DNA of 64,000 nt from an uncultured cyanobacterium (GTDB lineage: Bacteria > Cyanobacteriota > Cyanobacteriia > Phormidesmidales > Phormidesmidaceae): contig CAWCAI010000003.1 of NCBI GenBank assembly GCA_963793495.1, positions 626,124 to 690,123 of the forward strand, written 5' to 3'. This document shows positions 3,003 to 59,158 of this stretch, in pieces; the stretch's first letter is position 1, and every line of letters starts with the position of its first letter. Position numbers and translations under genes: made by a program. The notes under the pieces were generated by a model. The model was given only the letters and a program-made list of their open reading frames with translations, made no database searches and was not told the DNA's origin.

Positions 3003-4280
3003 TTAGCCTGCACGGAAGTTATCTAACCCTGCTAGCGCCAGTTTTGCGGTTCCATAGGCGGCTTCTGTCTGCAGAGCTTTCGTCACATTGACGCCTAGGT
3101 ACTTTTGCCGAACAGCTTGCCACGTCTGGTTTTGGGCACCGCCGCCTGCTGTGTAAACCTGCTGAACCTTCGGTGCGCCTAGCGTTTCTAGCTTCTGATA
3201 GCCTTCGGATTCTATGCGAGCGATTGCATCCAAAATCCCATGCAAAAAGTCAACATCCTCTTCAGGTCTAGGCGTCAGCCGGGGCAGATAGTCTGGATCG
3301 TTGATAGGAAAGCGCTCTCCTGGCTGAGTCAGCGGATAGTAAGCCAAATCGCAGGGTTTAGACAGGTTGATTTTAGCGCTGAGCTTGGCAATTTGTTCAG
3401 CGGAAAAGTATTGCTTGAGCACTGCGCCGCCTGTGTTAGAAGCGCCTCCCACAAGCCACAGATCGCCTAGCCTGTGGCTGTAGATACCGAATGCCTGGCT
3501 AGAAATAGCAGTTGGGCTCAGAAGCTTGAGTACGAGGGTGGAGCCTAGTGAGGTCACTGCCTCTCCAGGATGGCTGGCTCCGCTGGCGAGGAAGGCAGCG
3601 ATGCTATCAGTGGTACCAGCGCAGATTTGGCAGGTAGGCGGTAGGTTGAAACGAGCGGCTAGTTCTGGGCGGATGGGGGCGATCGCGCTTCCTGGCTCCA
3701 GCACCGCCGGTAGCCAGTCGGCAATGGGTAAGTTCAGCAGCCAGCTAGGATAAGCCAATTCTTCCACGTCATAGCCTAGCTTCAGGGCGTTGTGATAGTC
3801 GCTGATAGGAAGCTGACCGTGAAGTTTAGACGCTATCCAATCGGACTGATGCGCGATGCGGCTGTCCTCGTATGAGCCAGAATTTTTGCTGTGCAGCCAC
3901 ATGGCTTTAGCTAGGGTGGAGGTGGCGCTGAGCGTTGGGCTCTCAGGTGGTGCAATAACAGCGAGATCTGAAAGGATAGGGCGGGCGATCGCATCGTTGT
4001 ACATCAGCGCCTTGGTTAGGGGTTGTCCGCTGTCATCGCACAGCAGCATGGTAGCAGAGGTGCCATTGACGGCAATGCGGTGGATTTGAGCGCGGGTTTG
4101 GGGTGCGATCGCCTCGATCAACTGCCACAGCATTTGCTCCCACACCGTTGGAGAGGCGACTTCCTCTACAGTCAAGAACCGATAGTTAGACTGAGTCACA
4201 ATCGATTCTTTAGCGCTCTCCCCATCGATAACGACCGCCCTAGCTCCAGACGTTCCAAAATCAATCCCCAAAGCATACAT
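3003..4280 (-). CDS. FGGY-family carbohydrate kinase (xylulose/ribulose kinase-like)
   Basis: LGIDFGTSGAR, GTTDSIAA, SLGSTLV, GGASNTGG, TAGGGA motifs. Confidence 0.9.
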   Translation of the reverse strand: MYALGIDFGTSGARAVVIDGESAKESIVTQSNYRFLTVEEVASPTVWEQMLWQLIEAIAPQTRAQIHRIAVNGTSATMLLCDDSGQPLTKALMYNDAIARPILSDLAVIAPPESPTLSATSTLAKAMWLHSKNSGSYEDSRIAHQSDWIASKLHGQLPISDYHNALKLGYDVEELAYPSWLLNLPIADWLPAVLEPGSAIAPIRPELAARFNLPPTCQICAGTTDSIAAFLASGASHPGEAVTSLGSTLVLKLLSPTAISSQAFGIYSHRLGDLWLVGGASNTGGAVLKQYFSAEQIAKLSAKINLSKPCDLAYYPLTQPGERFPINDPDYLPRLTPRPEEDVDFLHGILDAIARIESEGYQKLETLGAPKVQQVYTAGGGAQNQTWQAVRQKYLGVNVTKALQTEAAYGTAKLALAGLDNFRAG

Positions 4281-4378
4281 AGATCGAAACTCACAAAAAA
4301 CAAAAAAGCCGCACTAAAACAGCACGGCTTTCTTCAAAACGTCAAACTTAGAGTCACAACAAACGGTCTGGACGAGCT

Positions 4379-4888
4379 CTAAACGCTAATCTCACTGACC
4401 TCTCTAGAAATAAAGTCAAATGGCTGATCGATAAAGGAGCTATCTTCAATTCCCATGTCTAAAGCCCGGTCTTTGACCATCTCTTTCATAATTTGGATGC
4501 CCTTCACCGTAGGCGCAATCGGTACGCCTAGTGAGTTGTAGGTTTCGCGCAGACCTTGCAGCACCCGTTCCATCAACACGTCGTTGTTGCCAGCAACTAG
4601 GGCATAGCTGCTGTAGCGCAGGTAGTAGTCCATATCGCGTAGGCAGGCAGCATAGCGACGAGTGGTATAGGCATTGCCGCCAGGACGAATCAGTTCAGGT
4701 ACAACCTCAAACAGCTTCTTCCCGGCCTCTCTAGAAATTTCAGCCGCATTCGCACTGATCATGGCCGCAACCTTGACCCGGTTAGCGCCGCTGTTGAAAT
4801 ACGACTGCAAGGAATCAATCGCATCGCGATCCAGGTAGCGACCGGTGGTGTCGTAGTTGCTAATTAAACTGGTGACCGTATCTCGCAT
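4379..4888 (-). CDS. apcF: Allophycocyanin beta-18 subunit
   Basis: 169 aa; MRDTVTSLISNYDTTGRYLD and GGNAYTTRRYAACLRDMDYYLRY (chromophore Cys). Confidence 0.93.
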   Translation of the reverse strand: MRDTVTSLISNYDTTGRYLDRDAIDSLQSYFNSGANRVKVAAMISANAAEISREAGKKLFEVVPELIRPGGNAYTTRRYAACLRDMDYYLRYSSYALVAGNNDVLMERVLQGLRETYNSLGVPIAPTVKGIQIMKEMVKDRALDMGIEDSSFIDQPFDFISREVSEISV

Positions 4889-5298
4889 GAAAATCTCCCA
4901 ACGTTTGGCGACTATTTAGATGAACGCCTCTAAAATGAACGTCTCTAAGGTTGTGTGCTTGTGGTTACGTGCTTGTAAAGCTTCTCACAGAAGTCTTTTG
5001 CCCTGCCTGTTTCAGCCATAGTTTTAAGAAAACTTATCGCTTGCAAAGCAAGAATATCAGTGGATTCAGCCATTTGACCGTCCGCTTCTTAGTCTACCAC
5101 GCGAGCTAATTGAGCTCACTGGCTCGCTTCGGTAGATGAGTGTTATCGAAGGAAAAGTTTACAATTCGACTTCTTAGTTACGCTCAGCTCAACTCATATA
5201 GTTTTCGTATGGACAGCTTCACATGTATAGAGTTTTCGATAGGATTCGGGCTTTGCGGCCCGTAGAAAGCAGGCTCGACAAAACTTGTTGGATGTTCC

Positions 5299-5340
5299 GT
5301 ATAGGCGGATACAAAATCTATCAATGGGTATTCATACGAT
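5299..5340 (+). promoter_or_regulatory. NtcA-activated promoter of glnN
   Basis: GTA-TAGGCGGA-TAC (5299-5312), 22-nt spacer, then TACGAT (5335-5340): the canonical GTA-N8-TAC-N22-TAN3T layout. Confidence 0.85.
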
Positions 5341-5420
5341 CGGTATCGTTCTAGATGGCCTTTTGGTAATTTCACGCCTCCATCTCAATAGGCAAATCTG
5401 AAAAACTTAGGAAAGACGAC

Positions 5421-7604
5421 ATGACTGGAAACGAGCCGCGCACACAAGCAATTTATGAGATCACTAACAGAGAGCCAATTGAGGCTAAAGCCCCCGAAAA
5501 GTTAGAAGATATCTGGGCCTCGCATGTCTTTAGCCTAAGTAAGATGCAGGCAACCCTACCCAAAAATGTCTTCAAATCGCTCAAAGAGACTATCAAAACC
5601 GGAAAGAAGCTAGATCCTTCCGTCGCTGATGCGGTCGCTGGCGCTATGCGTGACTGGGCGATGTCGATGGGTGCTATGTACTACGCTCACGTCTTTTACC
5701 CGCTAACCGGTGGAACCGCCGAGAAGCATGATGGTTTCATCTCTCCACAGAGCGACGGCGGCGTTATTTCTGAATTCTCTGGCAAGCTGCTGATTCAAGG
5801 CGAGCCTGACGGGTCTTCTTTTCCAAACGGCGGTATTCGCGACACTTTTGAAGCACGCGGCTACACCGGTTGGGATGTGACTAGCCCTGCCTATATTTTA
5901 GAAAATGAGATGGGGGCAACGCTCTGCATTCCCACCGTCTTCGTCTCTTGGACAGGCGAAGCCTTAGATAAGAAAACGCCTTTACTACGCTCTATCGCTG
6001 TGGTCGACAAGGCCGCAAACCGAGTGCTGAAGCTTTTGGGCAATACCGATGTTGCCTCCGTAAACTCTAGCTGCGGCGCGGAGCAAGAGTACTTCTTAAT
6101 AGATGCCAACTTCGCTAATGCTCGCCCTGATCTGCTGCTAGCAGGCCGTTCCCTGTTCGGTAAAGCGCCAGCCAAAGGTCAGCAGTTTGACGACCATTAC
6201 TTTGGGGCAATCCCACCGCGCGTGCAGGCATACATGCACGACGTTGAAACCAGGCTGTATAAGCTTGGCATTCCAGCCAAGACTAGCCACAACGAGGTCG
6301 CGCCCGGTCAGTTTGAAATTGCGCCTGTCTACGAATCTGCCAACGTCGCTAGCGACCATCAGCAGCAGATCATGACTACGCTACGCGATACTGCGGCTGA
6401 CCATGGCTTCTTGTGCCTGCTGCACGAAAAGCCCTTCGCAGGCATCAATGGTTCTGGTAAGCACGTAAACTGGTCGATTGGTAATTCTACTCAGGGAAAC
6501 TTACTAGATCCTGGCGACACGCCTGAAGAGAATCTCCAGTTCCTGGCGTTCTGTGGGGCGGTTATTCGCGGCGTTCATCTCTATGGTCCGCTGATGCGAG
6601 CTGTCATTGCCACGGCTAGTAATGACCATCGTTTGGGTGCAAACGAAGCGCCACCAGCGATCATGTCTGTCTATCTGGGTAGCCAGCTAGAGGATATTTT
6701 CAATCAGATCAAGGATGGTAAGCTGACTGGCTCTAGTCACAAGGGTGAGATGAATCTAGGGGTGGATGTACTGCCGCCTTTGACGAAGGATGCGGGCGAT
6801 CGCAACCGAACTTCGCCTTTTGCCTTCACCGGTAACCGCTTCGAATTCCGCGCAGTCGGATCTAGCCAGTCTGTTTCTGGTCCATTAATTGCTTTAAACA
6901 CAATGATGGCGGATTCTCTTAGCTGGGTTGCCGACCAGCTAGAGGCGAAGGTTAGTGGCGATTCTAGCGCTGAAGACATTGGCAGCGCAGTGCAGTCAGT
7001 CCTCAAAGACGTTATGGATAAGCACGGCGCGGCTGTCTTTGGCGGTAACGGCTACTCTGATGAATGGCACAAAGAAGCTGTCGAGCAGCGTGGGCTGTTG
7101 AACATTCCTACCACAGCCGATGCGCTTCCCTACCTCAAAGATTCCAGCATCACCGAGCTGTTCAAGAACACTGGCGTGCTGTCACCTACTGAGCTAGAAA
7201 GCCGGTTCGAAGTATATGCCGAGCAGTACGTTCTCTCGATTGAAGTTGAAGCGAAGCTAGTCGTGGATATGACGAAAACGCTGATCTATCCCGCAGTAAT
7301 GCGTCACCTTAGCGAGGCGGCTGGCGCAGTAGCCAATCTCAGCGACATCGGCATCGATATCGACAAATCGCCGGTTGAAAAAGTGGCAGGTCTAGCAAAG
7401 ACTTTGCTAAATGGGGCTAATGAGCTAGAAGGTGCGATCGCCAAGCACGACTTTGGATCGACCGAAGAGCACATGTCCTATTGCGCCAAGACCATTCGCG
7501 GCATGATGGACTCCATTCGTGAAGCTGCGGACACCCTCGAAGGTGAAATCGCCGATGACCTATGGCCACTGCCAACCTATGAAGAGATGCTCTTCATCAA
7601 GTAA
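5421..7604 (+). CDS. glnN: Glutamine synthetase type III
   Basis: 727 aa; [94 protein letters not shown]. Confidence 0.95.
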
Positions 7605-7644
7605 ACCAAGCTGAGCTTGTAAAACCGAAACCTCACAGAACAAC

Positions 7645-7671
7645 AGCCATCTTTTATAGGTGGCTTTTTTT
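7645..7671 (+). terminator. glnN intrinsic terminator
   Basis: AGCCATCT/AGGTGGCT stem followed by T6. Confidence 0.7.
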
Positions 7672-7792
7672 ATTGCCTGCGCTTTTCCCACCTTTCCTCA
7701 TTTATCCCTATAGAAACACACACGTTCCGTAACATTCTTTTACAATAGAGGTAATTCTTCTATCTAGAAACAGCTTAGCCAGCACAAGTTCT

Positions 7793-8872
7793 ATGCCAGA
7801 TACACTTACCAAGACCGCTTATCAGACCCTTCAAGAGGGCAAGAAGTACTTCGGCGTTGCCCACAAAACGCTTAGCACTCAGCTTCTCAATGTCCTCTCA
7901 AACACCAAAAGAGAAGAGCCTCACCCACCCGATCCACAGCTACTCATGCTGATGCAGAGCAAAATCAATGAGTTATTAGAAGCTGACTGGCAGGATGCAG
8001 AAGATGGGATTTATCCCAAGCAGGCACTTTTCGATAACCGCTGGGACGATTTCTTTCGCTACTACCCAGAGCTTTGGCTAGATCTGCCAGGAATTTGGGA
8101 TAGAGCCAACAGCAAGCGCCATCAAGACTTTAGTGAAGGCATCGACACCAGTGGCTACCCAAGCTACTACGTTCAGAATTTTCATCATCAGACAGACGGC
8201 TACTTTAGCGATACCTCTGCCAAGATGTACGACCTGCAAGTTGAGGTTCTATTCAACGGTACTGCTGCTCCTATGCGTCGTCGCATATTAGCCCCGCTAA
8301 AACAGCACATTGCTCAAATGGAGATACCGGTTGACACCACAGCTCAGCCTGTCAAAATTCTAGATATCGCCTGTGGTACAGGCAACAGCCTGACGCTAAT
8401 CAACCAGGCAATTCCCGAAGCCTCTCTGTACGGCGTAGATCTTTCACCTGCTTATCTACGCAAGGCCAATGAGAACCTAACCAACATCAAAGGCAGGATG
8501 CCCGCTCAGCTGATTCAGGCCAACGCAGAGGCGCTTCCTTTTGTAGATAATTTCTTTGCGGCGACTACCAGCACTTTCCTTTTCCACGAGCTGCCAGCTG
8601 AGGCACGTCAAAATGTGATTGACGAAGCCTTCCGGGTGACTCAGCCCGGTGGTGTTTTTGTGATCTGTGACTCTATTCAGAAGATAGACGCACCCGAGTT
8701 TGAACCGCTGATGGACAACTTTCCAGCTATGTTTCACGAACCTTACTACCGTCATTATGTTGGGGACGATTTGGTCGCTCGTCTAGAATCGGCAGGCTTT
8801 GAGGATGTGACGACAACGACTCATTTTATGAGTAAGTATTGGGTTGCGATCAAGCCTGCTGCATCAGCCTGA
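7793..8872 (+). CDS. Class I SAM-dependent methyltransferase (conserved cyanobacterial family)
   Basis: ILDIACGTG, GVDLS, FLFHELP; YYVQNFHHQTDGY. Confidence 0.88.
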   Translation: MPDTLTKTAYQTLQEGKKYFGVAHKTLSTQLLNVLSNTKREEPHPPDPQLLMLMQSKINELLEADWQDAEDGIYPKQALFDNRWDDFFRYYPELWLDLPGIWDRANSKRHQDFSEGIDTSGYPSYYVQNFHHQTDGYFSDTSAKMYDLQVEVLFNGTAAPMRRRILAPLKQHIAQMEIPVDTTAQPVKILDIACGTGNSLTLINQAIPEASLYGVDLSPAYLRKANENLTNIKGRMPAQLIQANAEALPFVDNFFAATTSTFLFHELPAEARQNVIDEAFRVTQPGGVFVICDSIQKIDAPEFEPLMDNFPAMFHEPYYRHYVGDDLVARLESAGFEDVTTTTHFMSKYWVAIKPAASA

Positions 8873-8910
8873 CGCTATAGGCCTATAGGCCGTTGCACAT
8901 AGACTGCTAA

Positions 8911-8948
8911 AAGGATTGCCTCCATTAGAAATGGGGCAGTCCTTTTTT
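8911..8948 (+). terminator. Intrinsic terminator
   Basis: AAGGATTGCC.CCAT / ATGGGGCAGTCCTT stem plus T tract. Confidence 0.7.
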
Positions 8949-9075
8949 ACGCTGTAGTCTTTGAAGGAAAAGCTGATATGCGACCTACTCATCAATAAGA
9001 TGAGGGCTAGTTTTTGTAGCAAATTTTACAGTTGATTAGACTTGATTCAGTTGTGAAATCAAGGAATCGCTACTA

Positions 9076-9363
9076 ATGAAATCTGTATCTACTTACCCGC
9101 TGCAAAACAACCAGGCCTATTGGCCTCTGCGCTCAAACAACGCTCAGAAATCAACTCAAAAGCGCTTATCAAGCAGACTCAAAGATCTGTTTCGTTCGCT
9201 GATTTCTCAGCTTAGCAGTGAGGCCGATCCTGCTGTATGGCAGACTCATGACGCTACAGGCCGAGCGGTCTGGAGTGCTGAAGACCGTGCTTCTGGTAGA
9301 AGCATTCGCGGTGTGTCGGAAGCAGAGCTGCGTGTTTGGCTAGAAGCGCGATACCAGTTCTAG
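9076..9363 (+). CDS. Conserved cyanobacterial hypothetical protein
   Basis: C-terminal WQ..D..G...W...D..SG...SEAELRVWLEARY pattern of a small cyanobacterial family. Confidence 0.7.
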   Translation: MKSVSTYPLQNNQAYWPLRSNNAQKSTQKRLSSRLKDLFRSLISQLSSEADPAVWQTHDATGRAVWSAEDRASGRSIRGVSEAELRVWLEARYQF

Positions 9364-10023
9364 CTGATCGAATAGCTGACGGACCTTCGATAAGTCTTTG
9401 TCACCTGGCGACTTCTCTACTCCACTAGAGAGGTCGATTCCGTTTGGGGAGAGTTCCGCGAGCGCAGTGAGGATGTTGACAGGAGTAAGCCCACCAGCTA
9501 AAAACCAGGGCCGACCGGGCGAAAAGGTTTTGAGCGATCGCCAGTCTAAGGTTTTACCGGTGCCGCCTAGCTGCTCAGGGTGATAGGCATCTAGCAGTAG
9601 GCGATCGACGTAAGGTTCGTAGCCGAGCGCGGTTTCTAAGTCCTCATTGGTGCGAACTCTAATAGCTTTGACAAGCTTCACTGTAGACAAGTCCGCATGG
9701 TCTAGGGCATCGCGCAGTCGCTGACAGGTGGCTGGGCTCTCATCGCCGTGAAGCTGAATCACGCTGAGGCCTGCTGTCTTAGTGACGCCAAGGATTTCTG
9801 ATAGCGGCGCGTTAGCAAAGACACCAAAGTGTTCCAGATCCGGAGCGAATTTGGCAACAGCAGAGACAATCGAGGCGATATTTTGAGGGGTGATGTAGCG
9901 GGGCGATCGCACCACACAGATATAACCTAGTGCCGTTGCGCCGAGCTGTGCGATCGCCTCCGCCTGTTCCACCTGCGTAATCCCACAAATCTTCACCTGC
10001 AACATCGCGTTCCTCTGCTTCAA
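9340..10023 (-). CDS. trpF: Phosphoribosylanthranilate isomerase (start may be ATG 10005)
   Basis: VKICGIT, IQLHGDES, LLDAY...GGTGKTLDW, FLAGGL, IDLSSGVE..PGDKD. Confidence 0.95.
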   Translation of the reverse strand: MKQRNAMLQVKICGITQVEQAEAIAQLGATALGYICVVRSPRYITPQNIASIVSAVAKFAPDLEHFGVFANAPLSEILGVTKTAGLSVIQLHGDESPATCQRLRDALDHADLSTVKLVKAIRVRTNEDLETALGYEPYVDRLLLDAYHPEQLGGTGKTLDWRSLKTFSPGRPWFLAGGLTPVNILTALAELSPNGIDLSSGVEKSPGDKDLSKVRQLFDQLELVSRF

Positions 10024-10163
10024 TCCTCAATAAATAGACGGTTATCCCCAACCGCACTGGCCCCGGTCAAACCGTCATGTTCAGTACAATAGAAGCACGT
10101 CAAACAGGCTTCAGAGCTTGTTTTCACTGATATTAGGCTATTAACACCGAAGGATAACACCTC

Positions 10164-11375
10164 ATGCAGACAGGCTGGCGAGTAGGCTCCCTCTTCAACA
10201 TCCCATTATTTATCGACAACTCCTGGTTCCTCATCGTGCTCTTCATTACCTTCACCCAGGGAAATGATCCGAGCCGAGTCGAGCTATTAGGAACGAGTGG
10301 CGCATGGGCAGTTGGCCTGATATATGCGCTGTTGCTCTTTGGCTCAGTTTTACTGCATGAGCTAGGTCATAGCCTGGTGGCACAGTCGCAAGGAATCACC
10401 GTCAAATCAATCAAGCTCTTCTTGTTTGGTGGCGTCGCTTCTATTGAGCGCGAATCCAAGACACCCGGTGGCGCGTTCAAAGTAGCCGCTGCTGGACCGG
10501 CGGTTAGCCTTGTTCTGTTCGTGCTGCTCACTCTACTAGGTGGCACCAGTATCCTACCGCCAGTAGCTGTCGGACTAGTTAAAGAGATAGCGCAGCTCAA
10601 CCTAGTCCTTGCTCTATTCAACCTGCTGCCGGGGCTACCGCTAGATGGTGGTCAGATCTTCAAAGCTGCCGTTTGGAAAATCACGAACAGCCGGACTACG
10701 GGCGTGCGATGGGCGGCCAAATCCGGTCAGGTTGTGGGCTGGGCTGGGCTGGCGTTAGGTGCGATCGCCTTCTCCGTCACTGGTAGTCTACTTGCGGCTC
10801 TTTGGCCAGTTCTCATCGGTCTCTTCATCTTGCGCAATGCTGGTGCCTACAACCGCATGAACACCCTGCAAGAAGAGCTTTCCAAACTCAATACAGGCGA
10901 TGCAGCCGTCCGTGACTTCCGCGTACTCGATGCCAACATGACATTGCGCCAGTTCGCTGACGAATACCTACTCGAAGACAAGAAAGCAGCTCCCGTTTAC
11001 TTCGCATCCTCAGATGGTCGCTATCGAGGAATGGTCACCATCGAAGACTTGCGACAGGTAGAACGCAGCGAGTGGGAATACCGCAACCTGCACAGCATCG
11101 CCCGTCCTCTGCTAGAGATTCCTCACGTTGGCGAAAACACTCCACTGACCGAAGCCATTCAGCTCCTAGAAGACAAGCAGATTTCTCGTCTTACCGTCCT
11201 AACGCCAGCTGATGCCGTTGCCGGTACGCTAGATCGCGGTGACATTGTCCGCTCCGTTGCCAGACAGCTTAAGCTACCGATTACTGAACCTATCATTGAG
11301 AAAATTAAGCAGGATGGCGTTTATCCGGCTGGCCTACAGCTTGGGGCGATCGTCCAGTCAATCGAGAAAGCCTAA
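10164..11375 (+). CDS. Site-2 protease (M50) with CBS domains
   Basis: HELGH zinc motif, FNLLPGLPLDGG, C-terminal CBS pair. Confidence 0.92.
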   Translation: MQTGWRVGSLFNIPLFIDNSWFLIVLFITFTQGNDPSRVELLGTSGAWAVGLIYALLLFGSVLLHELGHSLVAQSQGITVKSIKLFLFGGVASIERESKTPGGAFKVAAAGPAVSLVLFVLLTLLGGTSILPPVAVGLVKEIAQLNLVLALFNLLPGLPLDGGQIFKAAVWKITNSRTTGVRWAAKSGQVVGWAGLALGAIAFSVTGSLLAALWPVLIGLFILRNAGAYNRMNTLQEELSKLNTGDAAVRDFRVLDANMTLRQFADEYLLEDKKAAPVYFASSDGRYRGMVTIEDLRQVERSEWEYRNLHSIARPLLEIPHVGENTPLTEAIQLLEDKQISRLTVLTPADAVAGTLDRGDIVRSVARQLKLPITEPIIEKIKQDGVYPAGLQLGAIVQSIEKA

Positions 11376-11430
11376 AACAAGAAAGCCTGGAATGGACATA
11401 GCCTTCTGAGACATTGCACGGAGTTTTTTG

Positions 11431-12737: not shown

Positions 12738-12742
12738 GAGCC

Positions 12743-45357: not shown

Positions 45358-45359
45358 CA

Positions 45360-49089: not shown

Positions 49090-49146
49090 AACCTGTGGAA
49101 AACTTTCCGGAACCTGTGGAAAACTTTTGAGCGATCGGTGGAAAAC
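49090..49146. promoter_or_regulatory. Three phased DnaA-box-like motifs (TTTTCCACA on the minus strand)
   Basis: TGTGGAAAA at 49094 and 49115, GGTGGAAAA at 49137; 17-nt perfect direct repeat AACCTGTGGAAAACTTT. Confidence 0.6.
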
Positions 49147-50463: not shown

Positions 50464-50466
50464 CGG

Positions 50467-51219: not shown

Positions 51220-51231
51220 AGCTACAGAAAC

Positions 51232-52956
51232 TTGAAAAACCTTTCGGCTGACGTTATTTCTGATCTTGCTGACGCGCAATCGCTTCAGGCAGCACTCAGC
51301 AGAGACAAAGGCAGTCGAAAAAAGTTCTTTGCACTATTTTTGTGGCTCGCGCTGACAGTCTGGGCGCTGTGGCTATCGGGCATACCCGAGCTGAACTGGG
51401 GCGGACGCGATTCGATCTATCAGTTTCTATCGGCTAGCTTTCGCCCTGCTCTAGAACCGACCTTTCTTTGGGTAATGGCAAAGGCAGCGCTGACAACCTT
51501 TGCCTTTGCAGTCTGTGGAACGACGCTGAGTCTGGTCATCGGACTGATCTTCGGGATTATCTGTTCGCAGGTTTGGTGGCAAATATTCTTACCTGGCGCT
51601 GCTGGGCGCGGGTTGTGGAGGTCGCTGCGAGGTGGACTGGCGATACCTAGGGCTATCCATGAGGTAATTTGGGGATTGCTGCTGCTGAACGTGCTGGGAT
51701 TAGATCCAATTGTGGGTGTGTGCGCGATCGCCATTCCCTTTGGAGCTATCACCGCTAAAGTCTTCTCTGAAATCCTGGATGAAACGCCCGTCGGACCGCT
51801 GAAAGCCTTAGTCAACAGCGGCGTCAATCCGGTGACAGCTTTCTTGTACGCTCATCTGTCGCAGGCTTTACCCAATCTAATTTCTTACGGATTTTATCGG
51901 TTTGAGTGCTCGCTACGAGCGGCGGCGGTACTCGGCATCATCGGTGCGGGCGGTCTAGGCGAGCAAATTTTTCTGAGCTGGCAGTCGTTGAAATATGCGG
52001 AGGTATGGACAGGCTTCTATGCGCTGATACTGCTGAATGGACTGGTCGATGCCTGGAGTGCAAAGCTGCGGCGACAGATGGGCTTTGTCAGTCGGATGGA
52101 TCTCAGTAGTCAGACAGATAAAGGCAGCCTTAGAGAGGTAGCTGACCAGAATCGGCTGTTTGTCTGGAGTTCCTGGGGTGCGATCGCGCTTTCCATTCCC
52201 CTATGTTTCACCTACCTCAACATCGGCTGGTCTCGTGTCAGCCGATCTTCCCCTTTCCTGATGGACTTAGCTAGCCAGGTCACGCCAGATCAGGTTATAC
52301 CAGCGCTTTCATCTTCTCTCCTACCGCTAGCGCTGCAAACCATGGCGATGTCCATTCTGGCAATCACCTTGGCCGGCATAGGTGGCGTTCTATTTTCTTT
52401 TCCGGCAGCTCAGAACTTTTTCTTACCAGGTGGCTTGCTACAGAGCATTGGGACTTCTAGTCGCTGGAGTTGGGGACACGGCGTTCTTTTTCTCGCACGG
52501 CTGATCCTGCTGGCGGCTAGAGCAATTCCGGCTCCAATACTGGCGCTGATCGTTATCTTTGGGATGTATCCAGGTATCTGGCCTGGTGCCTTGGCGCTGG
52601 CTGTCCATAATTTTGGAATTCTGGGTCGATTGATGGCGGAGGTGAATGAAAATTTGCCAGATGGACCGCTGCGGGCACTGCGATCGCTAGGGGCTTCGGG
52701 CAGCGGCGTTGTGCTCTACGGCATTTTACCCGCAAATCTCTCTCGGTTTTTGGCCTATATTCTCTACCGTTGGGAAGTCTGCCTGCGAGAAACCGTCATC
52801 GTTGGTCTAGTCGGCGTCGGTGGACTAGGTCGGCTGATGACAGAGCAGCTCAGCAGTTTCGACTATGGCAGCTTGGCTGCCACTCTGCTTGTTTTTATGG
52901 GTTTAACTATCATCATCGATACGATTAGTGGATGGATGAGAACGGCGGTTCGCTGA
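51232..52956 (+). CDS. PhnE/PtxC-like permease, two fused domains
   Basis: Duplicated RAIHE/RAIP and YRFEC.LR/YRWEVCLRE...G.VG.GGLG motifs. Confidence 0.88.
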   Translation: MKNLSADVISDLADAQSLQAALSRDKGSRKKFFALFLWLALTVWALWLSGIPELNWGGRDSIYQFLSASFRPALEPTFLWVMAKAALTTFAFAVCGTTLSLVIGLIFGIICSQVWWQIFLPGAAGRGLWRSLRGGLAIPRAIHEVIWGLLLLNVLGLDPIVGVCAIAIPFGAITAKVFSEILDETPVGPLKALVNSGVNPVTAFLYAHLSQALPNLISYGFYRFECSLRAAAVLGIIGAGGLGEQIFLSWQSLKYAEVWTGFYALILLNGLVDAWSAKLRRQMGFVSRMDLSSQTDKGSLREVADQNRLFVWSSWGAIALSIPLCFTYLNIGWSRVSRSSPFLMDLASQVTPDQVIPALSSSLLPLALQTMAMSILAITLAGIGGVLFSFPAAQNFFLPGGLLQSIGTSSRWSWGHGVLFLARLILLAARAIPAPILALIVIFGMYPGIWPGALALAVHNFGILGRLMAEVNENLPDGPLRALRSLGASGSGVVLYGILPANLSRFLAYILYRWEVCLRETVIVGLVGVGGLGRLMTEQLSSFDYGSLAATLLVFMGLTIIIDTISGWMRTAVR

Positions 52957-53037
52957 TATAGTGCTGGTTCAAGATTTTCACGGAATCAGGGTCCGCAGCG
53001 CGGATGCCTCTGATGATAGCTTTTGTGAGGGATTATT

Positions 53038-54636
53038 TTGGGTAAGCGATCGCTAGCTGGAATTGCCGGGATTGTGGCGGCGGCGACACTGCTGAGTAAG
53101 GTGTTTGGACTGCTAAGAGAGACTGCGATCGCAGCCGCCTTTGGCACAGGACCAGTCACCGACGCCTACAGCATTTCGTATGTCATTCCTGGGTTCTTGC
53201 TGATTTTGCTCGGTGGCATTAATGGCCCGTTTCATAGTGCAATCGTCAGCGTCGTTGCCAAGCGCAAGAGAGAAGAAATTGCGCCGCTGGTAGAAACGGT
53301 CACCACCTTGATTGCAATTGTGCTAGCAGTGGTGACCGTGGCACTGATTGTGTTTGCCGAGCCGATTATCGGCTTTATTGGACAGGGCTTTAGTGCGACG
53401 GAAGTGGGGCTAGAGAGCCGCGCGATCGCAATCACTCAGCTCCGCATCATGGCCCCAATTACGCTCTTCGCCGGATTTATCGGCATCGGCTTTGGCACCC
53501 TCAACGCTGCCGATCAGTACTGGCTCCCCTCTATTAGTCCGCTGCTCTCTAGTTCGGCAGTGATGGTCAGTCTCGGAGTTCTATGGCTAGTGCTAGGTGG
53601 CGACATCAGCGACCCAAGCAACTTGATGATTGGGGGAATAGTGCTGGCGACAGGCTCACTAATTGGTGCTGTCTTACAGTGGCTGATTCAAGTTCCGGCC
53701 CTGTGGAAGTCTGGATTAGGTCGCCCTCAGCCAGGATTTAGGTTCAAAGACCAGGGCGTTCGTGACGTGCTCAAAGTGCTAGCACCTGCGACGTTCTCTT
53801 CTGGCAGCTTGCAGATCAACGTCTACACAGACCTGTATTTTGCGGCTAGAGTCCCCGGCACCCTGTCATCTTTGAACTTTGCTAACCTACTGATCCAAGC
53901 TCCGCTGGGCATCATTTCCAATATCGTCCTAGTCCCTTTCTTACCAATTTTTTCTCGCCTGACCTCGCCTGACCAGTGGCCTGAGCTTAAACAGCGCATT
54001 CGCCAGAGTCTGATTTTGGTGGCGCTGACAATGCTGCCACTAAGCGCTCTGATTGTGACATTGGCGAAGCCGATTGTCAGCGTGGTTTATGAACGGGGTG
54101 CGTTTGATGAAGACGCGGTTGTTCTAGTAACGTCGATGCTGATTGCTTACGGTGCGGGCATGTTCGTCTATCTGGCTAGAGATGTGATGGTGCGGGTGTT
54201 CTATGCACTAGGCGATGGTCAGACGCCGTTCAATATCAGCCTTGCTAATATCATCACTAACGCAGTTTTGGACTATGTGTTTTTTAATCTGATCGGTCCG
54301 CCGGGACTGGTAGTGGCGACGATTGGGGTCAATGTGGTTTCACTGATTGCGATGACTGTGCTGCTAGGTCGAAAGATCGATGGACTGCCAGTGGCGGACT
54401 GGGCTCGGAGCATTGCGATTATCACTGGCGCAAGTTTTCTCAGTGGCGTTTCTTGCTGGCTGACGCGGGGCGGACTGGCCAGCATCGTCGGCTCGGAAGG
54501 CTTTCTGGCAAACTTGATTCAGATGTGCGTGGCTGGGGGGATTGGGCTGGTGACCTTTGCGCTGTTGACGATTGTGCTGAAAATTCCTGAAGCGGATTTA
54601 CTGGCACAGCGGATTCGGCAAAAGCTGGGTCGATAG
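53038..54636 (+). CDS. murJ: Lipid II flippase MurJ
   Basis: SKVFGLLRE, GGINGPFHSA, QINVYTDLYFA, ERGAF, RVFYALGD. Confidence 0.94.
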   Translation: MGKRSLAGIAGIVAAATLLSKVFGLLRETAIAAAFGTGPVTDAYSISYVIPGFLLILLGGINGPFHSAIVSVVAKRKREEIAPLVETVTTLIAIVLAVVTVALIVFAEPIIGFIGQGFSATEVGLESRAIAITQLRIMAPITLFAGFIGIGFGTLNAADQYWLPSISPLLSSSAVMVSLGVLWLVLGGDISDPSNLMIGGIVLATGSLIGAVLQWLIQVPALWKSGLGRPQPGFRFKDQGVRDVLKVLAPATFSSGSLQINVYTDLYFAARVPGTLSSLNFANLLIQAPLGIISNIVLVPFLPIFSRLTSPDQWPELKQRIRQSLILVALTMLPLSALIVTLAKPIVSVVYERGAFDEDAVVLVTSMLIAYGAGMFVYLARDVMVRVFYALGDGQTPFNISLANIITNAVLDYVFFNLIGPPGLVVATIGVNVVSLIAMTVLLGRKIDGLPVADWARSIAIITGASFLSGVSCWLTRGGLASIVGSEGFLANLIQMCVAGGIGLVTFALLTIVLKIPEADLLAQRIRQKLGR

Positions 54637-54672
54637 ATCCACTAAGCCTATCCAACCCAAAACAATTGCATT

Positions 54673-54957
54673 TTACTGGTGTGTTACCTCGCTCAGTGCG
54701 GCTTGAATGACTTCATCGTCAACGCCGCGACGTTTCAGACTATCGATCAACGCTAAAACCGTGTCATTGTCTATACGCTCAAGATCGGCGCGAAGACCTT
54801 GGCCAATATATGCACGGGCTAGCGGCTGGTAGCCCGAAAATCCAAGGGCAGGGGCTACTCGCTTTAAATCCTCTATGACATCTTCGGGCATCCGAATTGT
54901 CACTGTGGTCATCGGACGGGTGCGACTTAATCGTTTTTTCAAGGCTTCAGGCTTCAT
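54673..54957 (-). CDS. CopG/BrnA-like antitoxin
   Basis: VTIRMPEDVIEDLK...GYQPLARAYI; ATG 54957 overlaps the toxin stop. Confidence 0.75.
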   Translation of the reverse strand: MKPEALKKRLSRTRPMTTVTIRMPEDVIEDLKRVAPALGFSGYQPLARAYIGQGLRADLERIDNDTVLALIDSLKRRGVDDEVIQAALSEVTHQ

Positions 54958-55243
54958 ATGCTTCACGCTCCTTGCGAGTATCTTTGCGGGCGAAGATAAT
55001 CCGAATGCTGTCGTTTTCACGCTCGATGTAGACAACGGATAGCAAGCTCCAGCGCTTGTCCAATCCGATTACGGCATCTCTGGCTTCATCATTACGACTC
55101 GCGTCTACAACCACCAGCAAGGGATCGAAAAAGGCTTCCGCTGCTTGCTGGAAAGTCACTCCATCGTGCTTGATTGGGTTGAGCTGCGCCTTTGCCTCAT
55201 TCCAAACGAAGGTAATCCCGTTTAGTGAGAAATACACATCCAT
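54947..55243 (-). CDS. BrnT family toxin
   Basis: FVWNEAKAQLN..KH.GVTF..A..AF.DP...IRIIFARK...ER. Confidence 0.85.
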   Translation of the reverse strand: MDVYFSLNGITFVWNEAKAQLNPIKHDGVTFQQAAEAFFDPLLVVVDASRNDEARDAVIGLDKRWSLLSVVYIERENDSIRIIFARKDTRKEREAYEA

Positions 55244-55317
55244 CGTTTTAGTGTAGAGACAACGTATTTACATCGTCAATACGTTACGCTGCTTTCCTAA
55301 ACCGCATGTTAGTTGCT

Positions 55318-57387
55318 TTAGCTTTTTTCCCGCTGCCAGATGGAGATCACTTCGTCGGTGCTAGCGGTAATTAACGTTTGGCCGTCTGGGGAGAATGCGA
55401 TCGCCTCTATCCCCCAGTCATGAGCTAGCTTCGCAACGCACTCGCCTGTTTCCATATCCCAAAGGGTCAAGTTGCGATCTTCGCTGCCTACGGCAAGATA
55501 GCCGTTTTGACTAAGTGCGATCGCGCTAATCAAATACTTAGAGCGATAGAGCGTGACCGGCGCAGCGGTTTCTAACTGCCTGTCAAGGCTGTACAAGAGC
55601 ACTTCACTGGGGGTCGCCACAATCAGTCGATACCCGGCTTCAGCAGAAGTCTGGTCAGAAAGTTGGTTGGCAGTTGAACTGTAAGGCTGTAAAGCAAGGG
55701 CGATCGCATCCACTGGTTTTCCATCTTGCGGCTGCGCTATAGACAAGCTCCTAGCCAGTTGAAATCGCCATTTTCCTCTTGCTTTCTGGCGTTTCCACAG
55801 CTTCACTGTGCCATCGTCGCTGGCACTCACCAGCAGATTACCGCTTGGGGAGATCACCACCGCGCTCACTCGCTTCTGATGCTGAGTTAGCCGCTCAGAC
55901 GGTAGCAGCGTCTCAATGTCCCAAACCACGATCTGACCATCGCTATTAGGACTAATTAGCTGAGTTCCGTCAGGCGTCACTAGCAAACCCGTCGATGTCC
56001 AGCCCGAGGTCGACATCGTATTAAGCAGACAGCGCTGCATACTGTCCCATTCCTTCATCGTGCCATCTTCGCTAGCACTGTAGAGCGCTCGGCCATCTGG
56101 GTGGAACGCCAACGCAGTCACCGCTGCCGCATGTCCTGTGCCCACCAACAGCCGACGAGCAAAAGAATGCACCAGCTGTCCGGTAGACATTTGCCAGAGC
56201 CGTACAGCACTATCCACGCCACCACTAGCAAAGGTTTGACCCGACGAGTTAGTAGCAAGCGACTTTACCAGCCCAATGTCTGGCGCGAGCCGATGCTGCC
56301 GCCGCCAACCCTGAGGACGAGTCACCATAGCCGGTAGAGAGGTCTCAGAAAAGGCTTCTAAAAACCGCTTTTGGCCCGCAGACCACAAGCGATTAAGAGC
56401 AGTGCTACCTTCTGCGCTCAGGATATTTTTGAGGGCTGGAACGGACTCCTTGGCGCGGGTAATAATTTCCTGAGAGCCTTTAACCAGCAGATTCTGAGAG
56501 AACTGCAAGTCGAGGGTGACCTGTTCCATGCTGCTGTAGCGCTGCTGTAAAGATCGCTCCACCATTTGATCTAGCACCTGCGCAAATCGACCTTCTACCG
56601 GCGTCGATAGATAGTCTTGCCACACCCACCGATCTTCAACGGCAGAGTACAGCTCAAAAGGATGCAGTCCCGTTAATAAGTACAGGCAGGTCAATCCCAA
56701 GCTATATACGTCGCTAGCAAAGGTTGCTTGTCCCATTGACTGTTCTGGAGCGGCGTAGCCAGCGCTGCCAATCACGGTTTTAGCCTCGCTGTGACGAACA
56801 GATTTAGCTGCACCAAAATCGACTAGCATTGGCGACACTATCTTGTCTTGATCGCTACGGCTGACAATATTGGCGGGCTTGATATCGCGATGAATGATTT
56901 GAAAGCTGTGAACGTATTGCAGCACGTTGAGTAGCGATTTGAGCAGCGATCGCACCTGATCTTCCGCCCACGGTCCGGCAGCATCTACCTGCTCTTGTAA
57001 GGTCTGACCCGGCGCATATTCCTGCACCAAAAAATGACCCTGTTTGGACGCGATCGCCTCTAGTAGTCGCGGAATCTGAGGATGTTCGCCGAGCTTGCGT
57101 AACTGCTCAGCCTCAGCTCTGAAGCTAGAAGTATAGTTATCAGGCTGTAGTCCAGGCAGGCGTCGATAACTCTGCTTAACCACGCACAAAGTGGCTTTGC
57201 CCTGGCCTGCTTGCGCATCACCGGTTGAGGTCGTAGCCAAAAAAGTCCGACCGAATCCACCTTGACCCAGCAGTGCCGTCAGCCGGTAGCGATTGCCCAC
57301 CGCCAGCAGACTTCCACAAGCCTGACAAAAGTTGGCAGCGGCAGGATTTTGGGGATCAAGGCAAACAGGATTGGGACAATAAACCAT
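55318..57387 (-). CDS. Ser/Thr protein kinase with N-terminal Cys motif and WD40 repeats
   Basis: CPNPVC..NFCQACG, LGQGGFG, HRDIKPANI, DFG, GYAAPEQ; WD40 repeats. Confidence 0.92.
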   Translation of the reverse strand: MVYCPNPVCLDPQNPAAANFCQACGSLLAVGNRYRLTALLGQGGFGRTFLATTSTGDAQAGQGKATLCVVKQSYRRLPGLQPDNYTSSFRAEAEQLRKLGEHPQIPRLLEAIASKQGHFLVQEYAPGQTLQEQVDAAGPWAEDQVRSLLKSLLNVLQYVHSFQIIHRDIKPANIVSRSDQDKIVSPMLVDFGAAKSVRHSEAKTVIGSAGYAAPEQSMGQATFASDVYSLGLTCLYLLTGLHPFELYSAVEDRWVWQDYLSTPVEGRFAQVLDQMVERSLQQRYSSMEQVTLDLQFSQNLLVKGSQEIITRAKESVPALKNILSAEGSTALNRLWSAGQKRFLEAFSETSLPAMVTRPQGWRRQHRLAPDIGLVKSLATNSSGQTFASGGVDSAVRLWQMSTGQLVHSFARRLLVGTGHAAAVTALAFHPDGRALYSASEDGTMKEWDSMQRCLLNTMSTSGWTSTGLLVTPDGTQLISPNSDGQIVVWDIETLLPSERLTQHQKRVSAVVISPSGNLLVSASDDGTVKLWKRQKARGKWRFQLARSLSIAQPQDGKPVDAIALALQPYSSTANQLSDQTSAEAGYRLIVATPSEVLLYSLDRQLETAAPVTLYRSKYLISAIALSQNGYLAVGSEDRNLTLWDMETGECVAKLAHDWGIEAIAFSPDGQTLITASTDEVISIWQREKS

Positions 57388-57429
57388 AGCCCTACCAGCA
57401 TCCCATGTATCTTCGTGGGCGTTGCTCTC

Positions 57430-57464
57430 TATCCTGTCCGTAATTCTATATCCTGTCCGTAATT
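57430..57464. repeat. 16-nt direct repeat with 19-nt period
   Basis: TATCCTGTCCGTAATT at 57430 and 57449. Confidence 0.85.
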
Positions 57465-57744
57465 AGGTTGGAATTGTTTCACCGGGCCGCAGCCTAGCCC
57501 ATTTTCCCATGTCTTTGGCAAAGCTGTCACAGCCAACAACGTCGTACTCAAAGCCAAACTCATTGTCTTGGATGAATTGCTCATCCTTTACTTCCACCTT
57601 TGGCAGCGTAATATTAGCGTTTATCGTCGGATTGTTCGGCTCAAAGCTGGGGCGATCGCTCAGATGAGGCTGCTGGTGATTGGTTTCCACCGCATGGTAG
57701 GTAATGCAGCTATCAACGTACTGACAGTTAACGCAAATACACAT
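57463..57744 (-). CDS. ycf34: Ycf34 family protein
   Basis: MCICVNC.YVD.C.TYHAVE..HQQ...YDVVGCDSF. Confidence 0.9.
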   Translation of the reverse strand: MCICVNCQYVDSCITYHAVETNHQQPHLSDRPSFEPNNPTINANITLPKVEVKDEQFIQDNEFGFEYDVVGCDSFAKDMGKWARLRPGETIPT

Positions 57745-57871
57745 AGGCCTAACCCTTTGATCGCTTTGTTTTACTGTAGCGTAAGATTTTTAGAGGTGAC
57801 CGATAGAGATCTTTTGACGATGCGACTAAACCTACCCAACTAATCACCTCTCTGCATAGTTGTACTTTTGA

Positions 57872-59158
57872 ATGTCTCCTTTTCTTCCTAGTAGCTGGCC
57901 TTTTTCAATCGAAAAGCTGCCGCAAACAGCTTATCTCGTCGGCGGTAGCGTGCGCGATCAGCTACTACAGAGGCGCTCTAGCCATCTCGATTTAGATTTC
58001 GTACTACCGGATTGCGCTGTTGAAACGGCGTCGGAGATTGCCGCCGATTACAACGCAGGATTTGTTGTGCTAGATAAAGCAAGACAGATTGCACGTGTAG
58101 TCTTCGAGCAGGTAACGGTTGACTTTGCGCAGCAGCAGGGCGATCGTATCGAAGACGACTTGCAACGACGCGATTTTACTGTCAACGCGATTGCCTTCCA
58201 TCCCCACAGCCAAACCCTGATCGATCCACTCCGGGGTCAGGCCGATCTTCACGCCAAAATCATCCGCATGATCAGCTACCAGAACCTAGCTAGCGATCCG
58301 CTGCGGCTGATGAGAGCCTACCGTCAGGCAGCGCAGTTAGACTTCACCTTAGAAGGTAAGACTCAAGCTGCCATCAGAGAACTCGCACCTAAGCTTCAGA
58401 AGATATCGGTGGAGCGGATTCGTAGCGAGCTAGATGCTTTGCTGAGTAGCGCTGCTGGCAGCGCCCAGCTTGATTCTATTGAGCAAAACCAGCTATTGGC
58501 GTTTTGTCTGCCTCGATTCAACCGCGAAAGTGTTGAGCAGATTCGGGCTGTTGACGATGCGATCGCCCAGCTCCAATCCACCTATCCAACCTATGCTCAA
58601 GCCCTGCGCGGATGGACTAAACCGGTCCCCTCGAACTGCCACCGCAGCTGGATCAAAGCCACTAAACTCAGCTATCTACTCAGCTCAAACGTTACCGCTG
58701 CCGCCCAAGAACTCACCCAGCTCAAGTACAGCCGATCCGAGGTGCAAGTTGTCCTTAAGTTAATCAAGACGCAGCCTGCCATCGACAAAATGCGTAGCAG
58801 CTCGCCGGACCGGGCGCAGCAATTTTTTCTGTTTAAGGCAGCGGGTAGCGCTTTTCTGACAATTGCGTTGCTCGCTTTAGCCGAAGGCGTAGAGATGTCG
58901 GTATTAGAACCGATGATCGAGCGTTTTCTAGATCCAGAGGATGCGATCGCCCACGCCGAGCCCTTACTCAGCGGCACGCTCTTGATGCAGGTGCTAGACA
59001 TCGCACCTGGGCCGGAAATCGGCCAGCTATTAGCCGCTGTCGAGCAGGCTCAAGCAGAAGGCAAAGTCAAGACCCAGGCGGATGCGATCGCCTGGGTCGA
59101 AAAACAGTATTCCAAAGACAATTCCAAGCAGAACAATCCCTACATCGCTGAGCGATGA
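57872..59158 (+). CDS. Class II tRNA nucleotidyltransferase, probably CC-adding
   Basis: LVGGSVRD, DLDF, RRDFTVNA, DPLRLMRAYR, ERIRSEL; short loop before motif B. Confidence 0.88.
   Translation: MSPFLPSSWPFSIEKLPQTAYLVGGSVRDQLLQRRSSHLDLDFVLPDCAVETASEIAADYNAGFVVLDKARQIARVVFEQVTVDFAQQQGDRIEDDLQRRDFTVNAIAFHPHSQTLIDPLRGQADLHAKIIRMISYQNLASDPLRLMRAYRQAAQLDFTLEGKTQAAIRELAPKLQKISVERIRSELDALLSSAAGSAQLDSIEQNQLLAFCLPRFNRESVEQIRAVDDAIAQLQSTYPTYAQALRGWTKPVPSNCHRSWIKATKLSYLLSSNVTAAAQELTQLKYSRSEVQVVLKLIKTQPAIDKMRSSSPDRAQQFFLFKAAGSAFLTIALLALAEGVEMSVLEPMIERFLDPEDAIAHAEPLLSGTLLMQVLDIAPGPEIGQLLAAVEQAQAEGKVKTQADAIAWVEKQYSKDNSKQNNPYIAER

Follow-up and report, generated by a model that had tools for sequence, protein, structure and literature searches.

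The palindromic octamer HIP1 (GCGATCGC) recurs throughout the 64,000-nt stretch of cyanobacterial contig CAWCAI010000003.1 that was analysed here (51% G+C; hereafter the window), and around its copies the composition of each DNA strand changes sign, with G exceeding C in the flank 5' of the site and C exceeding G in the flank 3' of it. This flip of G against C is genuine; a corresponding flip of T against A is not general. The flip is specific to HIP1, depends on the presence of the site, is restricted to silent sites outside the closest flanks, takes the form of ramps between neighbouring copies and comes without extra divergence. As a kilobase-scale sawtooth anchored on a methylated palindromic octamer, it is new relative to the known strand asymmetries. 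The class of explanation that fits best, to which we give even odds, is a HIP1-anchored, 5'→3'-polar process at the DNA level that biases which mismatches get corrected. More specifically, albeit tentatively (at a probability of about 0.4), we read HIP1 as the strand or entry signal of a MutH-independent, 5'→3'-polar mismatch correction, acting on replication errors or on the heteroduplex of recombination or transformation, of which the sawtooth in the G/C skew of third codon positions (GC3 skew) would be the evolutionary footprint.

The window contains 79 copies of HIP1 (1.23 per kb) as against 1.61±1.33 expected by chance, and 75 of them lie inside open reading frames (ORFs), 41 of these in the frame GCG-ATC-GCN. 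The host is cyanobacterial: the nearest ilvD loci, at 96, 95 and 92% amino-acid identity, come from cyanobacterial metagenome-assembled genomes and themselves carry 0.7-1.25 HIP1 per kb. Averaged over the 79 sites, the plus-strand GC skew is +0.42 upstream and -0.40 downstream at 1-5 nt from the octamer, +0.21 and -0.14 at 6-10 nt, +0.23 and -0.19 at 11-20 nt, +0.15 and -0.18 at 21-30 nt, and +0.13 and -0.10 at 31-50 nt. The antisymmetric statistic over 1-50 nt amounts to 0.178 (z=11.9 relative to random positions) and is positive at 82% of the sites; over 3-50 nt it is 0.17 (z≈12, 82-84% of the sites), with a site-bootstrap 95% confidence interval of 0.137-0.200. Beyond the first 10 nt the antisymmetry persists, with z=8.5 at 11-30 nt, 6.1 at 31-60 nt, 3.3 at 61-100 nt and 3.0 at 101-200 nt. 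The sequence-only reading that preceded this analysis had described the sites as G/T-rich before and C/A-rich after; the G-versus-C half of that description stands, whereas the bulk T/A asymmetry around the HIP1 sites of the window is only 0.00-0.04.

Each flip was scored as the excess of G over C in the 60 nt before it less that in the 60 nt after it, scores of at least 20 counting as strong. By this measure a HIP1 is found no more than 20 nt away from 23 of the 44 strongest G→C flips, though HIP1±20 nt makes up only ~5% of the window, and from none of the 32 strong C→G flips. The 21 G→C flips away from HIP1 approximate the background rate set by the 32 C→G flips, and the HIP1-less flip near 36660, entered as a caveat in the sequence-only reading, is an ordinary intergenic stem-loop. 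Five of the six sites which that reading had picked as examples (3679, 4105, 40138, 48684 and 58559) are among the 44 strongest flips; the sixth, at 27056, is not, and this copy is lineage-specific, the orthologous positions in the relatives L001 and L002 being without HIP1.

The plus-strand polarity is the same in genes of either direction, with a GC skew over 1-60 nt of +0.23 upstream and -0.16 downstream in plus-strand genes, and of +0.15 and -0.16 in minus-strand genes; the same had been noticed earlier at the site in minus-strand mraY, and holds there too. The conclusion then drawn from it, that the flip is not coupled to transcription, does not follow: since HIP1 is palindromic and the pattern reverse-complement symmetric, the mRNA reads G-rich, then HIP1, then C-rich in either orientation of the gene.

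On crude ORF calls, the flip is located at third codon positions, where it is alike in plus and minus genes, and positions 1 and 2 move close to HIP1 only. From a coding-strand baseline of -0.03 the GC3 skew departs to +0.57 on the 5' side and -0.40 on the 3' side at 1-10 nt, +0.47 and -0.36 at 11-30 nt, +0.26 and -0.31 at 31-60 nt, +0.12 and -0.22 at 61-100 nt, and +0.10 and -0.13 at 101-200 nt, the deviations from baseline on the two sides being nearly equal. At four-fold degenerate sites of the 5' flank A and T stay level as G rises from.25 to.43 and C drops from.29 to.11-.16, and the 3' flank is the mirror image. Two-fold pyrimidine sites exchange C and T and two-fold purine sites G and A, with T up upstream and A up downstream at two-fold wobble positions only and four-fold A and T static. 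It is because two-fold sites make these trades that G/T before and C/A after had been seen at wobble positions despite a nil bulk T/A skew. The two-fold shifts match the four-fold odds (~1.4-1.6) in three of four comparisons of flank and class, the exception being the pyrimidine shift in the 5' flank, which is larger (2.4 vs ~1.4). The strand 5' of HIP1 thus prefers G, avoids C and is indifferent to A and T.

Single genes display the switch directly. In ilvD, wobble positions turn C-rich for ~600 nt after the site at 33266, as had been read from the sequence: counts per 30 codons are G 11-14 and C 3-5 before the site and C 24, 20, 20 and 17 after it, and the wobble string over the first 90 nt is CCTACCCCCCCCCACCCCACCCCCCCACAC. 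At the ilvD site 32825 the wobble bases change from G13/C7 before to G3/C19 after.

The signal is not confined to a few nucleotides around the octamer. Folded out to the midpoint between copies, the GC3 skew is ~0.5 within 30 nt and ~0.3 at 31-60 nt, then forms a plateau of 0.10-0.15 to ~600 nt, and still measures 0.05-0.08 at 1-2 kb. In relative coordinates HIP1 intervals of 150-4000 nt form a ramp from ~-0.45 to ~+0.45 that changes sign near the midpoint. In intervals of 1.5-4 kb the skew is 0.39, 0.30 and 0.23 at 61-100, 101-200 and 201-400 nt respectively, and only 0.14 and 0.11 at comparable distances from HIP1 in intervals of 150-400 nt; in the window clade the near-site amplitude is ~0.5 whatever the interval length. 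In 29 independent species the longer-interval trend is the same but weaker. The larger skew at a fixed distance in longer intervals implies that neighbouring HIP1 sites compete, in a manner that may be either ratio-like or additive.

A comparison with control octamers and near-miss sites, proposed in the sequence-only reading, bears out the specificity for HIP1: there is no asymmetry at GATC (n=252) or CGATCG (n=20) lying outside HIP1, at octamers with one mismatch (n=41, a count equal to chance) or two (n=290), or at 25 other palindromes. In E. coli K-12, 434 Dam sites (GATC) in 100 kb give 0.045±0.025 within 10 nt and 0 beyond, and 306 Dcm sites (CCWGG) of E. coli have no flank skew. HIP1-poor loci, mostly non-cyanobacterial and 1.16 Mb in total, contain 75 HIP1 octamers that are there by chance, and these are equally flat (-0.005±0.015), which eliminates an artefact intrinsic to the octamer. 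The flip recurs beyond the window: in comparison loci that each represent one ~20-kb ilvD neighbourhood per species and are phylogenetically related, 954 HIP1 sites of 80 genomic loci give 0.071±0.005 for G/C and 0.002 for T/A, a second, metagenomic set of 163 sites gives 0.050±0.011, and 47 of the 51 loci with at least eight sites are positive (p=2e-10).

The flip also follows the site itself. At the same codon columns of ilvD it is 0.275±0.021 in HIP1-bearing species and 0.038±0.015 in HIP1-less ones, and this same-column comparison of orthologs disposes of protein context as its source in ilvD. At orthologous positions in the window clade it amounts to 0.43±0.04 for conserved sites, 0.27-0.32 for lineage-specific ones and 0.054±0.047 where the site is absent.

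According to the favoured reading HIP1 would anchor a strand-polar mismatch-processing step at the DNA level, which from each HIP1 would run 5'→3' along each strand, rightward on the top and leftward on the bottom one; the opposite travel on the two strands would give the two flanks opposite strand bias. The substitutions surviving on the strand 5' of a site would be a gain of G and a loss of C, neutral in A/T, and adjacent HIP1 sites would compete to yield the GC3-skew sawtooth with its sign change near the midpoint. The sequence-only reading had likewise cast HIP1 as an entry or nicking site of a strand-specific repair or recombination process, although one that rewrites the flanking DNA by mutation. 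The entry-site idea holds up as the best-fitting class because the flip needs an intact HIP1, tracks the site at orthologous positions, sits at synonymous positions, and has ramps set by the distance to the next HIP1; the simple mutational footprint does not hold up, for reasons given with the mutagenic alternative below. The geometry of the process is better supported than its enzymology, and we infer alike that mismatch processing is the cause, that it is 5'→3'-polar and which enzymes perform it; how the sign of the skew translates into polarity depends on the assumed error and recognition hierarchies.

This process could take two forms. A GmC-directed repair model at HIP1 with a range of ~1 kb has been put forward, in which a nick is predicted at hemimethylated HIP1 (Elhai 2015, PMC4390886), and methylation of HIP1 by CGATCG and GATC methyltransferases is reported for Synechocystis (2026 preprint). 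Version A would be such a methyl-directed mismatch repair (Elhai 2015), with a putative nickase acting at hemimethylated HIP1 and excision proceeding solely 5'→3'. The replication errors of each strand would then be best erased just 3' of HIP1, and the survivors would stem from the other strand. Through known error asymmetries of polymerase and oxidation biochemistry (G·T mispairs, 8-oxoG routes, and G·G over C·C), the uncorrected nascent strand would probably gain G and lose C with A/T flat. The ramps that change sign near the midpoint and the scaling with interval length are consistent with a methyl-directed mismatch-repair strand signal, which would reach ~1 kb and depend on the distance to the nearest site, though they are no proof of repair. 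Half-extended 7-mers GCGATCGD (D being any base but C; n=240) have a skew of 0.077±0.020 on the flank of the intact G-C end and of 0.027±0.020 on the other, which is the side expected from version A (Elhai's GmC model plus 5'→3' excision), at a difference of only ~1.8σ. These 7-mers are the most frequent near-miss by a wide margin: of the one-mismatch octamers far from a true HIP1 in 39 HIP1-rich sequences (the window plus loci among L001-L051), those changed at position 1 or 8, i.e. the 7-mer GCGATCG, number 240, vs 36-84 for changes elsewhere.

Version B would be a polar correction of heteroduplex during recombination or natural transformation, in which the strand being processed, or the donor strand, would have its 5' end at HIP1. 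The hierarchy of mismatch recognition by MutS (G/T over A/C, G/G over C/C) would make that strand C-rich, and would do so as a fixation bias. Version B accounts more naturally than version A for the weakness of the flip in non-coding and plasmid DNA described below. It also fits the reported boost that HIP1 gives to recombination: HIP1 in homology arms raises transformation ~100-fold in PCC 7002, and the effect persists in ΔaddAB (bioRxiv 10.1101/2024.09.10.611283).

Several results, chiefly the weakness of the flip in non-coding and plasmid DNA, weigh against a HIP1-anchored mismatch correction. An initial "non-coding" class, which looked like mixed codon positions and probably contained unannotated short genes, was replaced by one scored on codon usage; in the confidently non-coding DNA thus defined the skew is 0.13, 0.10 and 0.08 within 60 nt, reduced yet significant, and ~0 beyond, as against 0.35, 0.24, 0.20, 0.13 and 0.07 at third codon positions of the same species. 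Plasmid alpha of Nostoc PCC 7120 (L161-L163, 150 kb, 90 HIP1) has the part within 10 nt only (0.36, then ~0.05) and lacks the 11-200-nt part present in chromosomal Nostocales loci. Version A should mark non-coding and plasmid DNA equally, barring a faster turnover that erases the mark. At first the skew seemed to carry over into adjacent genes that point the other way, but this continuation is not significant against a random-position null, which leaves room for a cause at the RNA or coding level. Short intervals in the 29 other species have a reduced amplitude close to the site, which ratio-type and additive behaviour would fit alike. The mutH gene is absent from all cyanobacteria, and no MutH analogue has been identified in them (PMC5101192; 2026 preprint); the Dam/MutH and Dcm/Vsr sites of E. 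coli are without such a footprint, so that a precedent is wanting. Finally, the GC3 amplitude per species ranges from ~0 to 0.35 among HIP1-rich species, and across species it correlates neither with GC3 nor with HIP1 density.

With respect to this variation among species, no flip is seen in the HIP1-rich loci L016 (a Synechocystis-like metagenome-assembled genome), L055, L039, L014 and L061. In L016, 93% of the HIP1 sites have the extended form GGCGATCGCC. Synechocystis PCC 6803 is reported to be without recJ (PMC5101192), with which the zero skew of the Synechocystis-like L016 forms a single coincidence.

The first alternative to be weighed is a polar mutagenic process, in which a nick or break at HIP1 would lead to single-stranded exposure or error-prone resynthesis and thereby add strand-specific mutations to the flanks. 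It shares geometry and HIP1 specificity with the favoured reading, and the rise of T upstream and of A downstream at two-fold wobble positions is what single-strand deamination would give. However, the four-fold sites exchange G and C with A/T flat and without the deamination-type gain of G/T, rather than showing the expected enrichment of C→T and A→G, and for added mutations to build up a skew of 0.5 the local mutation rate would have to rise greatly. The divergence of third codon positions near shared HIP1 in close pairs is 0.119±0.013 at 1-30 nt and 0.080±0.011 at 31-60 nt vs 0.119±0.005 far away, and in the window clade, whose members are 72-80% nucleotide-identical to the window with silent sites near saturation, it is 0.45 and 0.40 vs 0.47 far away. 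With synonymous divergence no higher near HIP1 than elsewhere, a mutagenic hot zone is disfavoured; together with the four-fold G↔C exchange at flat A/T, this points to biased correction or fixation in place of added mutagenesis. A purely mutational model also does not predict weakness in non-coding and plasmid DNA. Hence this alternative, and with it the mutational rewriting envisaged by the sequence-only reading, appears improbable. Closer material was sought for such comparisons: an exact-protein look-up returned no near-identical strain, the best match of a metagenome scan had 81% amino-acid identity, and synteny among the Nostoc loci is patchy.

A selective explanation would have HIP1 work better, for instance in the loading of RecA or DprA, in DNA uptake or in the binding of a protein to the strand ending 3' at the site, when that strand is G-rich and C-poor, in the manner of Chi in GT-rich islands. 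The composition (G up, C down, A/T neutral, broadly similar odds at two-fold and four-fold sites) does resemble a fixation bias, the G-rich strand is the one with its 3' end at the site, divergence is slightly lower nearby, and HIP1 promotes recombination in PCC 7002. Yet hundreds of silent sites reaching to at least 1 kb from thousands of copies would imply implausibly weak selection on each, and a functional context should have a fixed size instead of scaling with the distance to the next HIP1 and should hold in non-coding and plasmid DNA too. Many HIP1-rich species are, moreover, nearly skew-free, and against a synonymous-codon shuffle the flanks are not enriched in any oriented oligomer. 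We accordingly assign this selection a low probability. The words that are over-represented in the coding flanks of the window clade (the window and L001-L004) relative to that shuffle, GCTG/CAGC, CTAG and AGCT, occur in both orientations and constitute a genome-wide context signature unrelated to the flip; as these words are orientation-neutral, an oriented Chi-like or KOPS-like oligomer was discarded as carrier of the skew.

Codon selection at the level of RNA or translation in HIP1-bearing transcripts would draw on the symmetry noted above, by which every mRNA reads G3-rich → GCGAUCGC → C3-rich. It would account for the concentration of the effect at third codon positions of chromosomal genes, its weakness in non-coding DNA and plasmid genes, and the lack of a significant continuation across gene boundaries. 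Against it, the flanks of a site do not pair specifically with one another, their mean folding energy being -22.2 kcal/mol vs -22.5 kcal/mol for partner-swapped controls; a flip reduced but significant is present within 60 nt in non-coding DNA; ramps of up to 2 kb have no known RNA rationale; and the near-equal 5' and 3' deviations are as predicted by a DNA-symmetric cause. Xu et al. 2018 found no evidence of an RNA or peptide role for HIP1 (PMC5861425). Given the unpaired flanks, the non-coding flip, the kilobase ramps and the near-equal deviations, RNA-level causes are unlikely, and we regard this one as quite unlikely.

Reverse causation would have HIP1 arise or survive preferentially where composition already changes from G-rich to C-rich, its halves GCGA and TCGC constituting such a flip in themselves. 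The component within 10 nt is ubiquitous, occurring also at codon positions 1 and 2 and on the plasmid, and may in part be a context preference in site formation or recognition; the larger skew at conserved sites also accords with this idea. As an account of the whole flip, reverse causation has a very low probability: no skew is found at HIP1-less orthologous positions or at near-miss octamers, G→C flips away from HIP1 occur at the background rate only, and nothing else is known to create kilobase-scale ramps phased to the next HIP1. The probability that HIP1 is the core of longer inverted repeats (hairpins, cruciforms or REP-like elements) or has G-quadruplex flanks is negligible, for although G-rich and C-rich arms could pair and a few sites do lie in inverted repeats (e.g. 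43061-43109), the mirror complementarity of the flanks equals that of partner-shuffled ones (z -1.9 to +0.5), folding energy gives the same answer, and G-runs of at least 3 are fewer than in mononucleotide shuffles (232 vs 317±14), so that hairpins, cruciforms or extended palindromes and G-quadruplexes were both rejected.

Among known strand asymmetries, the GC skew associated with replication changes sign at the origin and terminus, and mammalian genomes contain sawtooth "N-domains". Like these, the HIP1 flip reverses strand composition abruptly at a defined site, ramps roughly linearly from one site to the next and is strongest at silent positions, and as at a replication terminus the G-rich strand enters HIP1 5'→3' from both sides. 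Unlike replication skew, which has two flips per replicon and domains of 10^5-10^6 bp, the flips number 79 in 64 kb (~0.8-kb domains), are anchored on a methylated palindromic octamer, have no bulk T/A skew and are weak in non-coding DNA. Chi hotspots are reportedly embedded in GT-rich islands, a preferred RecA pairing sequence, a finding attributed to Tracy, Chédin and Kowalczykowski in 1997. Chi and HIP1 are both repeated octamers linked to recombination and set in strand-biased sequence that is G-rich on the 3'-ending strand. Chi, however, is non-palindromic and orientation-dependent and needs RecBCD or AddAB, whereas HIP1 is a perfect, methylated palindrome whose flanks are enriched neither in T nor in any oriented oligomer, and it raises transformation without the help of addAB (bioRxiv 10.1101/2024.09.10.611283).

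Very-short-patch repair by Vsr at Dcm sites resembles the inferred process in being tied to a cytosine methyltransferase site and in its polarity, a nick followed by 5'→3' resynthesis; it differs in its patches of ~10-20 nt, as against an effect of at least 600 nt at HIP1, and the 306 CCWGG sites of E. coli lack the skew. Mismatch-dependent correction is also known from the Hex/MutS marker-efficiency effects in pneumococcal transformation and from GC-biased gene conversion at recombination hotspots. These have in common with the HIP1 flip that a correction of heteroduplex depending on mismatch type acts as a fixation bias without extra mutation and declines with distance. Known biased gene conversion, however, treats G and C alike in preferring them to A and T and has no strand polarity, whereas at HIP1 G and C are driven oppositely on one strand, so that the polarity of the strands must be fixed with respect to the site. 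Similar in layout are Dam/MutH at GATC and Elhai's model of HIP1, each with a methylated short palindrome as strand signal, ~kb spacing, a range of ~1 kb and a dependence on the nearest site. The 434 GATC sites of E. coli are nevertheless without flank skew, excision in E. coli is bidirectional, cyanobacteria are without MutH (PMC5101192), and polarity and a compositional footprint are absent from Elhai's model (PMC4390886). The sequence-only reading knew of no description of the footprint, and this agrees with searches of full texts and a focused reading of the principal HIP1 papers, in which neither flank skew nor strand asymmetry was found (Xu 2018, PMC5861425; Elhai 2015, PMC4390886; 2024 and 2026 preprints); Elhai 2015 examines motif extensions of 1-3 nt only (PMC4390886).

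Table 1. HIP1 sites and one unrelated stem-loop in the window (first and last positions)
Feature	Position	Strand or setting	Remarks
All 79 HIP1 octamers GCGATCGC	845..63926	no strand	taken jointly; G-rich → C-rich flip centred on each, on both strands alike
HIP1	3679..3686	in minus-strand ORF 3003-4280	flip score 23; cited in the sequence-only reading
HIP1	4105..4112		flip score 29, second strongest of the window; cited in the sequence-only reading
HIP1	27056..27063		not among flips ≥20; nearest strong flip 26981; cited in the sequence-only reading
HIP1	32825..32832	in ilvD	alignment column 363; in 30/50 cyanobacterial ilvD genes; flip score 27
HIP1	33209..33216	in ilvD	alignment column 747; in 10/50 species
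HIP1	33266..33273	in ilvD	alignment column 804; in 42/50 species; C-rich wobble positions for ~600 nt after
HIP1	40138..40145	in mraY, minus-strand gene	flip score 25; plus-strand polarity same as in plus-strand genes
HIP1 pair 43068 + 43095	43068..43102	in the two arms of an inverted repeat	strongest flip of the window, score 32 at 43102
HIP1	48684..48691		flip score 21; cited in the sequence-only reading
HIP1	55397..55404	in minus-strand Ser/Thr kinase-WD40 gene (Pfam)	flip score 26
HIP1	58559..58566		flip score 20; cited in the sequence-only reading
Stem-loop, outside the phenomenon	36637..36676	+, intergenic	flip near 36660 without HIP1

The principal sites are collected in Table 1, in which the gene names were confirmed by Pfam (ilvD, PF00920; mraY, PF00953 plus MraY_sig1). 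An alignment of ilvD from 50 cyanobacteria indicates that individual HIP1 positions in this gene are kept across the phylum; two further widely shared columns (25 and 20 species) are missing from the ilvD of the window. The two copies that make up the strongest flip are 19 nt apart, in 15-nt inverted-repeat arms at 43061-43075 and 43095-43109 (GGGGTGTGCGATCGC / GCGATCGCCTTCCCC) near the 3' end of ORF 42344-43198. The arms of the HIP1-less stem-loop at 36637-36649 and 36664-36676 (GGTTTCGGTGGGT / ACACACCGAAACC) are 13 nt long and 92% complementary and enclose a 14-nt loop; the structure lies ~40 nt past the stop codon of ORF 36284-36598, precedes a leuA-like gene and has no obvious T-run. The window further encodes a tmRNA (39245-39639, plus strand, tag peptide ANNIVPFARKRALVAAA) just upstream of mraY and a tRNA-Phe (GAA) at 21168-21240 (plus strand). 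Four sediment-metagenome runs of one study (X1-X4) contain contigs 85-100% identical to positions 30001-40000 of the window, which suggests that several related strains or species co-occur in those sediments.

HIP1 has been known for more than 30 years and is present in thousands of copies per genome, and its function is still described as unresolved (2026 preprint). A strand-polar footprint anchored on the site constrains that function, as something starts there and treats the strands differently on each side over hundreds of bases. Codon usage inside one cyanobacterial gene can switch between G-ending and C-ending at HIP1, a switch which matters for measures of codon bias, for the detection of horizontal transfer and for gene design, and the local skew phased by HIP1 may mask replication skew in these genomes. 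If HIP1 is indeed the signal of a polar mismatch correction, then that machinery would set how dense and how far apart the HIP1 copies are, and also much of the base composition at silent sites in cyanobacterial genes.

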